A DNA stretch of 64,000 nucleotides from Lobosporangium transversale. Taxonomy: Eukaryota. This document shows positions 15,046 through 22,730 of this stretch, piece after piece (the first letter of the stretch is position 1; each line of letters begins with the position of its first letter). Made by a program: the position numbers and the translations under genes. The notes below the pieces were generated by a model. The model searched no databases, had not been told where the DNA came from, and saw nothing but the letters and a program-made list of their open reading frames with translations. The stretch covers positions 372,001 through 436,000 of the forward strand of contig NW_019028993.1 of NCBI RefSeq assembly GCF_002105155.1, read 5' to 3'.

Positions 15046-16855
15046 GGTTATTCTTTCTTATGTATTAGGAAGTGTGGATTTAGTTTGGAAATGGATATAG
15101 AATTGGATTTGGACTTGGGATAATGTCTTTTTTCTTTGTTATGGTGTGTTATGTTGAGGTTGAAAAAAAATAAAGATTGGTGGTCGACGTTCAGCTTTTA
15201 TACCTCTTTCTACCTGTCTGCCTGTCTATACTTTTACTTCAATGCTCATTTGAGATACTGTCCGTCTTGGTTTGTCAGTAACTCATAGTTAAAACTATTT
15301 GTATCGAGGAGCCAATTAGTGCGCTTGTTTAGCTACATCGTAGATGCTGTCAATTCACCTGCCGTTTTTAATAAGCCTTTGCTGGTTCTAGAGTGCGCTA
15401 CTAAACTTTACTTTTGACCTTTTTGTCATTAAAGAATAATGGTTACGTATCCCCGATCTTAGAATTCTATTTCGTTTGCCCGATCTTTGCATGATTGATT
15501 AGAAAAAAAAAAAAAAAAACCTTATCTGGAGCAACGAGGGGCGTCTTGACTGCGGAACAGGAGCTATAAAGTTGTAGAGCGTAATGGTATACATACAACG
15601 TGAATACCATTTTTAGGTTCGTGCTATAATTTTCCCATTTTTCCATTTGGAAAGCCGGACCAATCCAAATAGAGAATTCGTTGATGTTTTGGCAAAACTA
15701 ATATCCGCTGCATGCATGCATGCATGTTAGTTACAAATAACGAAACCGAGCTCAGAAAACGATTTTTCTGAAAATAAAAAAAAAGGAGGCCTGCGTTGCT
15801 TGCCTATTGGATTAATTGGATTAATTGTAAGATAGATTACTTTGGGTCAATCAAGAAGAACAAAAGCGTCAACACTATGAAGGACTTTCAAATATGCAAC
15901 CTTCAGTTTGCAAAAAATGGTATCCCTTCCCTTTTTTTGTCAGTTATGCACTTTATCAAAAAAAATGAGGCTCTTCACGAGCCTGCGCAGCTTATGTGCG
16001 GTGCACTCACGCTCATTGACAAATTCTGTCATATAGGTCACAAGGGAATGATTTTCCTTCTAAGTGATTTGTGCCGCTTAGAAATTTCTCACTTTGGTCC
16101 CAGTCTGTCATTGAGCGTTAGTGCGTTGTACATAAGCCACACAGGCTGGTGACGAGTTTATAAAATCCACTTTGACAAAAAGTTCGACCAGACCGTATGA
16201 CTGTGCAATAATGTCTAGCAAGGTTTTTAAAATTATATTTGAGCTTCCCCAACTCATACATTGCTGTCTTGACATAACGAGGATTGCAACCGTTATGATC
16301 AGCATGGAGATGTATGTCGAGTATATGCATATGATATCAGAATGAGTTCAATCTTTGCGTAGGATATAATACTTTGCTTGTTTACCAGAAGCAAAACGCC
16401 GCTCTTAGAGAGTCACAGAGGAGTCGAAGAGTGGTATAAATTTTTAGTTTAAGGGTCCATTTCTACGTTACGCAAAGCTTAAGCTGCAAGTCAACATGCA
16501 GAAACAGGGCAGACAAAAAGCCAGAAGCAAAAACAGCAGAGGAAAAAGGAGTGCGACTTTCTTGTTAAAAATGACTTTCCCTCCGTCTGTGGACCTCTTT
16601 CTATACGGTAATTTATAATTTATATTTTAGATCAGATTATTTTTCTTTTACAGCAGCTCTCACAACGTACAGCATTGATATTTCTAAGAGACAAAGAGTA
16701 GTTCATAATAGTATATGTTTACAATGTTTATTATTCCTAGCCTCATCTCTTTAGTATCGAGAGTAAGAGGTTCGTGATTTCAACCACTAGCCGACTCGAA
16801 TTATCCCTGAGGCTAACTTCATTCTATGAGTGGTATCCTTGCTTGTTCACTCCAT

Positions 16856-17282
16856 TTAAGGCTTGATTGGGGGAATTCTAATATGAATATCGTCGGTGAA
16901 AGTGGGGTCCTTTGGCCCATCCGCCTCGGTGATGCTTTGAGGAGGAATTTTGATATGAGAGTTGGGAATTGGAGGGATCTTGATATGGATGCTATCAGCA
17001 GACTCAGCGACTGGAGGGATTTTAATATGGGTGCCGTCGGTGGAGATGGAGTTCTTTGCTCCATCCGACTCGGCGATTGGCATCTTGATTGGGCCAGCTA
17101 TAGAGTTAAATAGGACAAGATGGTAATGAGCTGAATGTTTAGCATACCCGAACAGTGTACAAATACAACACACAAACACAAGCATGCACATCCACATGGA
17201 CAGGTGTAAAAACCTTACCTTCGGTGGACATAACCAAGGCGGCAACGGTCATGGAAAGGGCGGCAGTGATTGAGAGCTTCAT
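16856..17282 (-). CDS. Secreted repeat-peptide precursor A (101 aa; exons 17282-17219 and 17097-16856)
   Basis: Spliced translation: MKLSITAALSMTVAALVMSTEAGPIKMPIAESDGAKNSISTDGTHIKIPPVAESADSIHIKIPPIPNSHIKIPPQSITEADGPKDPTFTDDIHIRIPPIKP*. GTAAG...TATAG intron, hydrophobic signal peptide, upstream TATA, paralog at 20898. Confidence 0.85.
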
Positions 17283-17368
17283 GATGTGAAATGGATAGTG
17301 GAGATTTAAGGAGCTATTTACAGTGTTGTAAGGTGCTTGAAGAAGAGAGAAGGAAAAAGAGCAAAAGG

Positions 17369-18582
17369 GTCTGGTTTTATATGAAAAAATACATGGATGG
17401 TGAAGCACTTGGTACACCGAGCTTGACACACCGAGCAACCAATAGGTATCTTCAAGTCAAAGATACTTTCCTGTTTGGCTATCTATACTCTATCTCAGTA
17501 ACATCAGGGATCTGAAACACTCACTAGATGTAGAACAGATCGCTTGTGCCGCTATGACAATGTAGTGGGACTATTAAGATATGTAGTCAAAACGCTTGTT
17601 TCACACATTTATGGCTATTCACGTTTTATGGCGCGTGACATGCTCCTCTAACAGTCGTCAATTGAAGTCAAACAGCATTAGTCGAAGTGATACGCTTATG
17701 AAACACCCAATCACGCAAGTCTTGTCGTCATACAAAATTAATGAGGCAGATAAGGTAAACGCAGGATGGGCAGCATATAAATCCTGTAGCTAGAAAGACA
17801 TAGCACGCATGTAGGATAGTTGGGGTAGTTGAGCAGCAGGATGCAGTCATGTATTACAAAACCAAGCAGACGAAGCTGCTTACCTTTGCTGCCACTATCA
17901 TGATCGATGCATTTGTCTTTGGGATGCTCAATCAGGGTCTAACTGTTCACACTATAGAGGCACAAGGCCAATGCGACAGTATTCCAGTCTTGGGGTTTTT
18001 TTTTACCCCTTGGTAGCCAATTGGCCTGTCTTTACTTGCACATATTCTACAGAAGAATAATAATAGCAGGTATGCTACCCCTATCTACTGATTACTAGAT
18101 TTGATTGTTTAAAATGTTTCTAATGATGAACCTAGTTGAATCAGAATTACTCGAGAAACTTCCTGTTTGACTTAAAAATCACAAAGCTTATCTAGGCAAT
18201 CCGTCCAATAGCTAAGATATAACACTTATCTAGGGCTGAAAACTAGAACACGAGCTTAAAGCTCGACTCCATCCTTCTCAATCTGGGGAAATGGAGTTGC
18301 CCTTGTTTCGGGTTAAATAATCTAAACATTTTCACGGTAAATGCGGCTTACAGCGTCCATGATGAAATGAAGCCAAAGTACGCTAGGAAAATCATACCTC
18401 AAGTAGTGAGGCGGTTCAACACTGAATCGAAAAGCCTGCAATCCCTTGGGGCGATTGAAAGCATATCGTTAAAAACCTTTAGAGTCTCCTAGTTGCTTTG
18501 GTTGAATAGCTATCGAGTTTCTATACTGAGGATGTTTAGCGCAGATGTGCCTAGACAAATATTCAGCAACAGGTTACAAAGG
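17369..18582. repeat. Left arm of 1214-bp inverted repeat (promoter of precursor A)
   Basis: Reverse complement of 19599-20812. The coordinate sum is 38181 at both ends and at the identical spurious ORFs 17596-17793 / 20388-20585, so there is no net indel. No mismatch in the segments I compared. Confidence 0.97.
17375..17381 (-). promoter_or_regulatory. TATA box of precursor A
   Basis: TATAAAA on the minus strand ~92 nt upstream of ATG 17282, followed by a pyrimidine-rich leader. Confidence 0.65.
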
Positions 18583-18628
18583 CAAGCTCTACATGGAGAA
18601 AGCGTTGTAATAACCTGCTTACCGGGGG

Positions 18629-18661
<33 letters not shown>

Positions 18662-19598
18662 ACCAGGATGATAGCCACCACAAGTGCAGCTTTGCCATAT
18701 ATAGCCAAGACTATGTTGTTATATATATCAGAACACCTGGATTTACCAGAGGTTCAAGGACAAGCAGCTGTTGCTGAGGTGGGGAGGATGACAACAGAGA
18801 AAGAGAAAGTGACCAAGCGGATAGCCTAGCTAGCCTTGCATTTTAGTCTGAATTGAAAACTTATTCATTGCTTGATAATAAATTAAAGACAATATCTATA
18901 CGTTAATTCTAGTTTTCGTAGATGTGTATTAGAATGAAGTCGATAATCTGACTACTGATAAAATGAGAAAATTATTATACGATGGGCATGTAAAGCGCAT
19001 AAGTCGAGCCTGAATCTTCCAGAAAATGTACATGAGAGGTATTGTAAACGATGCTAGGTGAATGCTGCACAGAAGGAGGAGCTCTTATTCAGTGTACGCG
19101 TGAACATATCGAGATTAAAAGTTTGGTTTTTTGTATTTGCTGAAGGGAAAGTGATACGCTTCGGGTGGAGCTTTTTTCACGAAAGGGCCTACCTGTAAGA
19201 TCAAAGCTGGCTTCACAAGTTCTCTGACTAGAGATAGCATGTCGTGCTCCAATCACTAGTGCTTCATGAACTGGGCTTGCTGCAAGCGTATCCTTTAGCC
19301 TCAGCTAGAACACCATCCAGTGGGAACATGAGTCTAGACTGCAGCTGGGAGTGTTTGAACCTCTTAGGTAGGGGTTCTTGGATTTGCAAGAGTGGACCTG
19401 GCCCTACCGTGTATTCAAACATAAAACATCATTTCTTGAAGATCTGTTGACATCTCGATATATGGTGACCTCATTTACTCATAGTAAACACCAAATAAGC
19501 ATAAGGGAACCATAATCTCTATTGATACTTATAATTATTCAGAGATTCGAAAATATTTAATAGGATTTCTTCATCTTCAAGCAGAAGCTAGATAGGAA

Positions 19599-20812
19599 CC
19601 TTTGTAACCTGTTGCTGAATATTTGTCTAGGCACATCTGCGCTAAACATCCTCAGTATAGAAACTCGATAGCTATTCAACCAAAGCAACTAGGAGACTCT
19701 AAAGGTTTTTAACGATATGCTTTCAATCGCCCCAAGGGATTGCAGGCTTTTCGATTCAGTGTTGAACCGCCTCACTACTTGAGGTATGATTTTCCTAGCG
19801 TACTTTGGCTTCATTTCATCATGGACGCTGTAAGCCGCATTTACCGTGAAAATGTTTAGATTATTTAACCCGAAACAAGGGCAACTCCATTTCCCCAGAT
19901 TGAGAAGGATGGAGTCGAGCTTTAAGCTCGTGTTCTAGTTTTCAGCCCTAGATAAGTGTTATATCTTAGCTATTGGACGGATTGCCTAGATAAGCTTTGT
20001 GATTTTTAAGTCAAACAGGAAGTTTCTCGAGTAATTCTGATTCAACTAGGTTCATCATTAGAAACATTTTAAACAATCAAATCTAGTAATCAGTAGATAG
20101 GGGTAGCATACCTGCTATTATTATTCTTCTGTAGAATATGTGCAAGTAAAGACAGGCCAATTGGCTACCAAGGGGTAAAAAAAAACCCCAAGACTGGAAT
20201 ACTGTCGCATTGGCCTTGTGCCTCTATAGTGTGAACAGTTAGACCCTGATTGAGCATCCCAAAGACAAATGCATCGATCATGATAGTGGCAGCAAAGGTA
20301 AGCAGCTTCGTCTGCTTGGTTTTGTAATACATGACTGCATCCTGCTGCTCAACTACCCCAACTATCCTACATGCGTGCTATGTCTTTCTAGCTACAGGAT
20401 TTATATGCTGCCCATCCTGCGTTTACCTTATCTGCCTCATTAATTTTGTATGACGACAAGACTTGCGTGATTGGGTGTTTCATAAGCGTATCACTTCGAC
20501 TAATGCTGTTTGACTTCAATTGACGACTGTTAGAGGAGCATGTCACGCGCCATAAAACGTGAATAGCCATAAATGTGTGAAACAAGCGTTTTGACTACAT
20601 ATCTTAATAGTCCCACTACATTGTCATAGCGGCACAAGCGATCTGTTCTACATCTAGTGAGTGTTTCAGATCCCTGATGTTACTGAGATAGAGTATAGAT
20701 AGCCAAACAGGAAAGTATCTTTGACTTGAAGATACCTATTGGTTGCTCGGTGTGTCAAGCTCGGTGTACCAAGTGCTTCACCATCCATGTATTTTTTCAT
20801 ATAAAACCAGAC
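19599..20812. repeat. Right arm of 1214-bp inverted repeat (promoter of precursor B)
   Basis: Reverse complement of 17369-18582. The arms are separated by a unique 1016-bp spacer (18583-19598). Confidence 0.97.
20800..20806 (+). promoter_or_regulatory. TATA box of precursor B
   Basis: TATAAAA ~91 nt upstream of ATG 20898. Confidence 0.65.
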
Positions 20813-20897: not shown

Positions 20898-21595
20898 ATG
20901 AAGCTCTCAATCACCGCCGCCCTTTCCGTGGCTGCTGCCGCCTTGGTTATGTCTACCGAAGGTAAGATCTTTACACCTGTCCATACTCCTGTGCATGTTT
21001 GCGTCTGCGTGTTTTGTATTTATACACTGTTCAAGTATGCTAATAGTCAGCTCATTACCATCTTGTCCTATTTAACTCTATAGCTGGCCCAATCAAGAAG
21101 ATCCCACTCGCCACAGTCAAGGAGGCATCTGGACCTCATCTCACTGACTCGGCCAAAGAGGAATCTAGATGGAAGCTCATTGAACTCAAGGGACCTCATC
21201 TCGTTGATGACTCTGTCGAGGAGGATTCTAAATGGGGCACAATTATATATGGATCGAGTCACGGGCCATTCAAGGGACCTCATCTCGTTGATGACTCGGC
21301 CAAGGAGGCTAGACACCCCATCTGGTACAAGGGACCTCATCTCATTGATGACTCAGTCAAGGAGGCTTCTGGGCCTCATCTCGTTGACTCGGTCAAAGAG
21401 GAATCTAGACGGTTCCCCATTGAATTCAAGGGACCTCGTTTCGATGATGACTCGGCCAAGGAGGCTAGATATGATTATGGAGTCAAGCCACTCAAGGGAC
21501 CTCGTTTCGATGATGACTCAGTCAAGGAGGATAGGCATATCAAGGTCCCAATCGGTCCAATCAAGAAGGCATCTGGACCTCATCTCGCTGACTAG
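20898..21595 (+). CDS. Secreted multi-core repeat-peptide precursor B (191 aa; exons 20898-20961 and 21084-21595)
   Basis: Spliced translation: MKLSITAALSVAAAALVMSTEAGPIKKIPLATVKEASGPHLTDSAKEESRWKLIELKGPHLVDDSVEEDSKWGTIIYGSSHGPFKGPHLVDDSAKEARHPIWYKGPHLIDDSVKEASGPHLVDSVKEESRRFPIEFKGPRFDDDSAKEARYDYGVKPLKGPRFDDDSVKEDRHIKVPIGPIKKASGPHLAD*. GTAAG...TATAG intron in the same phase and position as in paralog A. Confidence 0.88.
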
Positions 21596-22110
21596 ATCAT
21601 GAAGGCGTCACGCCCCATCGGGAAATAGACAGCTCATTCAAGGCTTCTAGGATCCAGAGAAGGGGCAATTCATGGGGATCGACTTATGGAATGAAATCAG
21701 TCTTAGGAATGATGTTAACTGTGTACAGGAATAACGACTCTCAATACTAAACATGTTAAGACCAGAAATAAATGTAAATATTATAAATTACTTTTTGCCT
21801 CTTAAAAATATCAATGCTGTATATTGTGAGAGCTGTGAGGAAAAACAATATGACCTAAATTACAACAAGGAGCTTCGTAATATGATATATTCGTGGGTTA
21901 CTGGATCACTGGATCTCAAAGGGAAAAATAGAAAAGAAAAGAAACATAATGAAAAGTAATGAAAAAGAATAGAGAATTAGAAAAAAAAAAAAAAAAAAAA
22001 AAAAAGTAAAAAAGGATAATAGAAAAAAGTAAGGATAAGAATATTAAAAAATGGAAAAAAGTAACCCTGTCTCTTTACCTATCTCTTTACCAATTCTTCC
22101 ATATTTTTTA

Positions 22111-22183
22111 TCTGTTCTTACCTGTTCTTACCTGTTCTTACCTGTTCTTACCTGTTCTTACCTGTTCTTACCTGCTCTTACCT
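22111..22183. repeat. 10-bp minisatellite (CCTGTTCTTA)~7
   Basis: Direct reading of tandem units. Confidence 0.95.
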
Positions 22184-22632: not shown

Positions 22633-22730
22633 AAAAATAAAAATAAAAATAAAAATAAAAATAAAAATAAAAATAAAAATAAAAATAAAAATAAAAATAA
22701 AAATAAAAATAAAAATAAAAATAAAAATAA
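22633..22730. repeat. (AAAAAT)~16 hexamer microsatellite
   Basis: Direct reading; it generates the spurious KIKIKI / NKNKNK / FYFYFY ORFs. Confidence 0.95.

Follow-up and report, generated by a model that had tools for sequence, protein, structure and literature searches.

A putative young chimeric gene with the promoter of its paralog in a repeat-peptide family of Lobosporangium transversale

Template switches between diverged repeats yield chimeric genes in yeast (PMC4215184). In the experiments covered by the accessible text of that paper (Anand et al. 2014), a strand that has been copying one template moves over to a diverged paralog where the two share a short block, and a chimeric gene results; the setting is an induced break in yeast, break-induced replication and engineered URA3 pieces. 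The accessible sections on S. eubayanus MALT434 (PMC6448821) and on chimeras of D. yakuba (PMC5460883) likewise describe new genes built from pieces of a family, with regulatory and coding parts reshuffled. Palindromes of sex chromosomes, in the available parts of two reports (10.1101/800185, PMC8600007), have arms of more than 10 kb that are >99% identical around a unique spacer. Among small secreted products, KEPs, as presented in the accessible sections of PMC6339444 and PMC7329392, combine a signal peptide, repeated short motifs separated by KR, RR or KK, a lack of cysteine and restriction to particular lineages. Our comparison with the literature also took in the accessible part of 10.1101/2025.01.14.632981.

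Here we describe two genes of the soil fungus Lobosporangium transversale, L and R, that are transcribed away from a common spacer and whose upstream regions form a perfect inverted repeat (Table 1). Coordinates refer to the window, the whole 64-kb stretch of DNA that was analysed. Like the products of the yeast experiments, L would owe its origin to a change of template between diverged paralogs within a short stretch common to both; unlike them, it would be a natural, fixed product, deduced from sequence, and the first leg of the copying would have been an inverted promoter copy. The breakpoints of MALT434 lie within a protein domain, whereas the switch in L would lie at the TATA box, and the D. 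yakuba chimeras come from tandem duplication, whereas L would join an inverted copy to a whole transcript from one donor. The arms resemble those of sex-chromosome palindromes in their identity around a unique spacer (1214 of 1214 letters match), but they are only 1.2 kb long and the genes lie outside the identical part.

Table 1. Features of the L/R locus, in window coordinates
Feature	Position	Strand	Description
Outer junction	16622..16623	.	Family homology of L ends; L' goes on with sequence like the R 3' flank
Body of L (leader, exons, intron, 3' UTR)	16623..17405	-	783 bp; near-identical to the putative L' outside the window, from contig depths
Gene L CDS	16856..17282	-	Exon 1 17282-17219, intron 17218-17098, exon 2 17097-16856; 101 aa
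TATA zone	17369..17405	-	37 bp; apparently identical in L, R and L' and putative template-switch site, from deduced depth
Left arm	17369..18582	-	Inverted exact copy of the R upstream region; predicted promoter of gene L
Inner junction of left arm	18582..18583	.	Abrupt; no microhomology, no target-site duplication
Unique spacer	18583..19598	.	1016 bp, separating the arms; 28-nt A tract at 18629-18656; two ends unlike
Right arm	19599..20812	+	R upstream region with TATA box; putative template of the left arm, from sequence comparison
Gene R CDS	20898..21595	+	Exon 1 20898-20961, intron 20962-21083, exon 2 21084-21595; 191 aa
R 3' flank match	21861..21890	-	21/30 to the 30-nt loose end of L'

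Exact comparison of the left arm with the reverse complement of the right arm gave the maximal exact extent of the repeat; the pair reaches 1237 nt once mismatches are tolerated. The identity stops 6 bp downstream of each TATAAAA box (20800-20806 on the + strand and 17381-17375 on the - strand). Past the arm, L and R are 81% identical in the leader (69 matches, 16 mismatches and 1 gap), 91% in exon 1 (58/64), 87% in the intron (104 matches, 16 mismatches and 3 gaps) and 81% across the 91 columns of a 3' UTR block, and exon 2 is for the most part unalignable. The original prediction had described arms free of mismatches and net indels in the parts compared, a drop in identity six bases past TATAAAA and a collapse in the repeat exons, and the alignments agree with this description throughout. 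At 13% divergence, the probability of finding no mismatch in 1214 positions is about 4e-74, which rules out chance as the source of the identity, and the 95% upper bound on arm divergence is 0.25%. The arm identity is recent, and the earlier claim that a single old duplication is insufficient to explain the locus holds.

No further copy of the arm was found within the 64-kb window, which contains no N. The two ends of the spacer align with a local score of 28, against a mean of 20.8 and a maximum of 30 for shuffled sequence. Arms and spacer contain no ORF of 150 aa, and Rfam returned for the arms a sub-threshold match only (E 0.99), present in both.

Seven public sequencing runs were available, of which four contain most of the stretch. 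We used the contigs of X1, X3 and X4; run X5, with three short low-depth pieces, was left out. The comparison covered the left side of the locus (flank, L and left arm) and a contig of R-type exon 1 and intron. Contigs drop one side of a bubble, and their depth is a rough guide and no copy number. In all three runs, positions 17416-18582 (1167 bp) form one unbroken contig with no other letter, and the ratio of arm depth to single-copy depth is 2.0, 2.5 and, in X4, 1.5-1.6. The X1 arm contig (2131 nt) has a depth of 191.3; the expectation is 190.3 for an arm at two copies joined to 964 nt of spacer at one, 257 for three copies and 123.5 for one. Counted from the right arm, 964 nt ends inside the A tract of the spacer. 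Contig coverage in X4 continues beyond the left inner junction, and in X1 and X3 positions 18583-18620 are uncovered (the bin depth is that of the arm contig alone), a hole that proves nothing. The arm and 1070 bp of flank show no differences among the three runs, which may represent one strain or clones.

It is very improbable that the arms truly differ and that their identity reflects a collapsed consensus, since the arm contigs carry no other letter and lie at about twice the flank depth. A few arm differences could hide, as contigs lose one side of a bubble, and X1 may be the source sample; differences of the kind that separate L from its near-identical relative (see below) do, however, appear in the same tables.

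The body of L lies at two-copy depth. Against an X1 flank depth of 123.5, we obtained 264 for 16640-16997, 253 for 16995-17112, 296 for 17105-17295, 262 for 17269-17366 and 268 for 17376-17445; in X4 the body depths were 16.9, 20.4, 22 and 20 against a flank of 11.2. Exon 1 and the intron of R form a separate single-copy X1 contig (depth 120.5), which differs from L by 22 substitutions and 3 gaps, exactly the L/R count, and carries the R allele at 10 of the 11 listed letters checked. Because the L body is at two-copy depth and the 5' part of R is a contig of its own, a near-identical third copy, L', would lie outside the window; it is known to us through contig depth and 30-nt loose ends, and the window itself contains no such copy. 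L and L' are about 99.6% identical over 783 bp, with one indel (16639) and one or two substitutions: a synonymous change at 16949, where another letter is read in all three runs, and a change at 16784 in two of the three. For the L protein (P0002), GenBank lists a single accession, on a single contig, and L' is not in the protein collection. Either L' would be absent from the assembly or it would lack annotation, and this makes a mis-join conceivable.

The depth of the TATA zone was deduced by subtracting the listed contigs from three depth bins, which yields contigs at 17337-17398 and 17369-17405, although neighbouring end points fit almost equally well. In X1 the deduced depth is 238, about two copies, for 17337-17398 and 353, or 2.9x, for 17369-17405, the latter from two separate bins (352.8 and 352.7); in X4 both bins give 31.6, or 3.0x, for 17369-17405. 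At 17376-17445 the depth is again that of two copies. The X1 values forecast a differently binned depth (523.2 predicted, 523.2 seen); in X4 the prediction of 44.3 misses the observed 46.4. We infer that L equals L' downstream of the TATA zone and R upstream of it, with the 37-bp zone common to all three. Beside this zone, at 17416, begins a contig of single-copy depth with roughly 85% identity to the arm; it is likely the promoter of L', although none of the listed contigs bridges it to L'. The TATA block is not the longest that L and R share, as there are also blocks of 52 bp at the end of the intron and 33 bp at the start codon. A switch at the TATA block may be due to chance, or it may have persisted because the resulting gene is functional. 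The 52-bp block itself (17083-17134), which spans the end of the intron and the start of exon 2 inside sequence of 87% identity, reflects either strong constraint or a short conversion tract.

At the outer end of the L cassette, a loose end lies just before 16623 in both of two runs, and a flank contig (15600-16669) crosses the junction with no differences in three of three; the flank-to-body junction of L is present in all three deep runs. The loose end of L' matches the R 3' flank within 1-2 bases of register, and no other 30-mer on either strand of the window scores as high (the runner-up has 19); the flank of L itself reaches 11/30. Since the L' loose end resembles the R 3' flank and the flank of L does not, R and L' have the appearance of old paralogs of full length, and L that of a gene truncated at 16623 and 18582. 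The letter at 16625, which lies 2 bp from the outer junction, is of the L' type in L and not of the R type. The outer junction is AT-rich with an ambiguous overlap of 2-6 bases, as read by eye, and the inner junction has zero shared letters. Neither a target-site duplication nor a terminal repeat was found at the cassette ends.

Given these observations, we lean, with slightly better than even confidence, towards L being a young chimera that arose by template switching and combines the promoter of R with the body of L'. A leftward-moving strand in the spacer, which may come from repair or replication, would have turned back and copied the R promoter, creating the inner junction. Within the 37-bp identity at the TATA box, L' would have become the new template; in the non-coding 5' part of its transcript, this old paralog is 81-87% identical to R. 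The strand would then have copied 783 bp of L', including the intron and 3' UTR, and rejoined the left flank in AT-rich sequence at the outer junction. The predicted outcome is a clean promoter swap, with L'-type peptides under R regulation. The arms would be identical because they are young; conversion between them or inversion of the spacer is possible now, but neither is required.

In a chimera, adjacent segments should each be near-identical to a different donor and meet within a block that the donors share. The arm matches the R upstream region, the body matches L', the putative donor, and the two meet within the zone for which three copies are deduced. The coding difference between L and R is most simply inherited from the old paralog, rather than produced by diversification behind a converting palindrome, because the L body is near-identical to L' and meets the arm identity within 37 bp. 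The two or three differences between L and L' are confined to the 783-bp body, with the arm free of them; such a distribution has a probability of 0.16 (two differences) or 0.06 (three) under one event and is a weak hint of two.

Two steps could also have produced the locus: an inverted duplication of the whole of R with 1.2 kb of upstream sequence, after which L' converted the new body. The depth pattern would be the same, the abrupt inner junction is accounted for, and the body-only differences could reflect separate timing. The conversion tract must, however, reach within 2 bases of a non-homologous junction without leaving an R-type base, and this order of events would make the body the younger of the two tracts, although the differences lie in it. 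We consider this route unlikely, though a serious candidate, and it ends in the same product, a young promoter-swapped gene. Likewise unlikely, but worth keeping in view, is an old palindrome whose promoters are matched by repeated arm-to-arm conversion, with L and L' homogenised separately. Arms of 100% identity that adjoin transcribed DNA of 81-91% identity are what such a process would leave, and arm-to-arm conversion is known in sex-chromosome palindromes from the accessible parts of the reports cited above (10.1101/800185, PMC8600007). Two conversion tracts would nevertheless have to meet in one 37-bp window, each reaching the end of homology; no diverged remnant is found inside the inner junction; and L lacks the family 3' flank common to R and L', a truncation that conversion leaves unexplained. 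Nor is the cargo of L diverging from L'. The original prediction had conversion homogenising the promoters while the peptide cargo diversifies, a view that the near-identity of the two bodies over 783 bp does not support.

A further alternative is a mis-join in the assembly across the 783-bp repeat of L and L', for instance through the collapse of two nearby direct copies. In that case the arms would be real, but the flank to the left of L would come from the other copy, and the polarity argument would be lost. The lack of L' in the protein collection and the second letter at 16949 in every run are consistent with such an error, as is the fact that none of the listed contigs spans the body from flank to arm. 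We judge it distinctly unlikely: the window has no N, both proteins lie on one public contig of 828,589 bp, which suggests long-range data, and a single event suffices for the assembled order, whereas the alternative calls for an error on top of two or more events. The arms on either side of the unique spacer, long and inverted, might also mark a foldback or Mutator-like transposon with long terminal inverted repeats. This origin is extremely improbable, as homology extends outward into the paralogous genes, the arm has a depth of about two copies and no dispersed family, segments of the arm match other paralog promoters, and the cassette shows none of the marks expected of an element (target-site duplication, terminal repeat or an ORF of 150 aa). 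A phase-variation switch was rejected by reasoning, since a crossover between identical arms would merely flip the spacer.

Both genes have two exons. The L protein contains four HI[KR]IPP units and no dibasic site. The R protein contains eight acidic units led by GP[HR][LF], six of them followed by variable hydrophobic cores, and its only dibasic sites are KK26, RR130 and KK182. Neither protein has a cysteine. In each, a signal peptide is predicted from a hydrophobic region that covers residues 8-18 (Kyte-Doolittle 2.4 and 2.2, with nothing later above 0.5). From the sequence pattern, we predict that the products are secreted precursors of repeat peptides, with processing probably at single basic residues. 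They resemble KEPs, as far as the accessible descriptions go (PMC6339444, PMC7329392), in the predicted signal peptide, the repeated short motifs (eight internal units in R and four in L), the lack of cysteine and the restricted lineage. KEP repeats are, however, separated by KR, RR or KK, whereas R has three dibasic sites for its eight units and L none, which places L and R outside the KEPs. In the accessible part of the KEP survey, Table S1 gives 0 for Lobosporangium transversale and Table 1 gives 0/357 for DUF3328 near KEPs of Mucoromycota (PMC7329392). DUF3328, a mark of dikaritin-type RiPPs, was absent from the matches of the 11 sequences scanned, which take in a minority of the 35 long ORFs. 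The neighbouring genes are ordinary (zinc dehydrogenase, ribosomal S11, Gtr1/RagA and an AMP-binding enzyme).

Letter for letter, the R and L proteins are P0001 and P0002, hypothetical proteins of Lobosporangium transversale with consecutive accessions. A second public assembly of the species has an annotation for the R protein and none for the L protein, which fits either a two-copy body that breaks short-read assembly or the absence of L there. Homolog searches found nothing beyond these two proteins; L-type lengths of 141-177, as well as short paralogs that have a different exon 2, lay outside their scope, and further family members may sit in the protein collection. Pfam has no family for either protein, and a PDB sequence search gave 0 matches. 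Matches in the ESM Atlas were all below 0.9, with one alpha-factor cluster at 0.79, and are leads only; confidence in the Atlas models is very low (pLDDT 0.42 and 0.28). Among metagenome contigs, 225 pattern matches yielded 0 confirmed cases, and no related locus was found there. The peptide family appears undescribed, as judged from a search that found no published account of the locus or the family and had subscription journals, as well as bioRxiv supplements, largely outside its reach.

The summed contig depth of exon 1 is 7-8x that of the flank in three runs, which suggests a peptide family of about seven members. Some promoter-like contigs are near two-copy depth and one exon-1 class is near three-copy depth, and recent copying seems common within the family. 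Contigs of other paralog promoters join across 17732-17809 and 18194-18261 (X1 depths of 243 and 207, near two copies), and promoter homology within the family persists for 900 bp or more upstream of the TATA box. The X1 summed depth reaches about 2400 at 16950-17020; the acidic spacer unit of L seems to be present many times over in other members of the family. We speculate, tentatively and as a rather unlikely reading, that the family shuffles promoters and peptide cassettes as modules through recurrent recombination at the conserved TATA block, with L as one instance; the two-copy promoters and the three-copy exon-1 class would then be further swaps.

Several repeats occur in the flanks. 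To the left of L, a 51-bp inverted pair (15971-16021 and 16106-16156) has 78% identity, and the X1 summed contig depth at 16125 is about 5020, some 40x the flank. The pair is a small dispersed repeat and possibly the relic of a miniature transposon. A second contig of single-copy depth matches 15600-15700 with one inserted base at 15685, which marks a short two-copy element of the left flank. To the right of R there are tandem arrays at 22108-22183 (a 10-mer, 7.6 copies) and 22633-22730 (a perfect 6-mer, 16.3 copies).

A chimeric gene with a promoter swap is already known as a kind of event, and a single recent rearrangement holds little surprise for a specialist in genome evolution; the peptide family lies outside the KEP definition. 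If the shuffling of modules were true, the family would be a combinatorial system of regulation by cargo in an early-diverging fungus. If the chimeric origin of L is right, the locus is a clean natural promoter swap among paralogs, the genome retains both donors, and L should follow the expression of R yet make the peptide of L'. Identical promoters beside diverged genes need not, then, imply concerted evolution.
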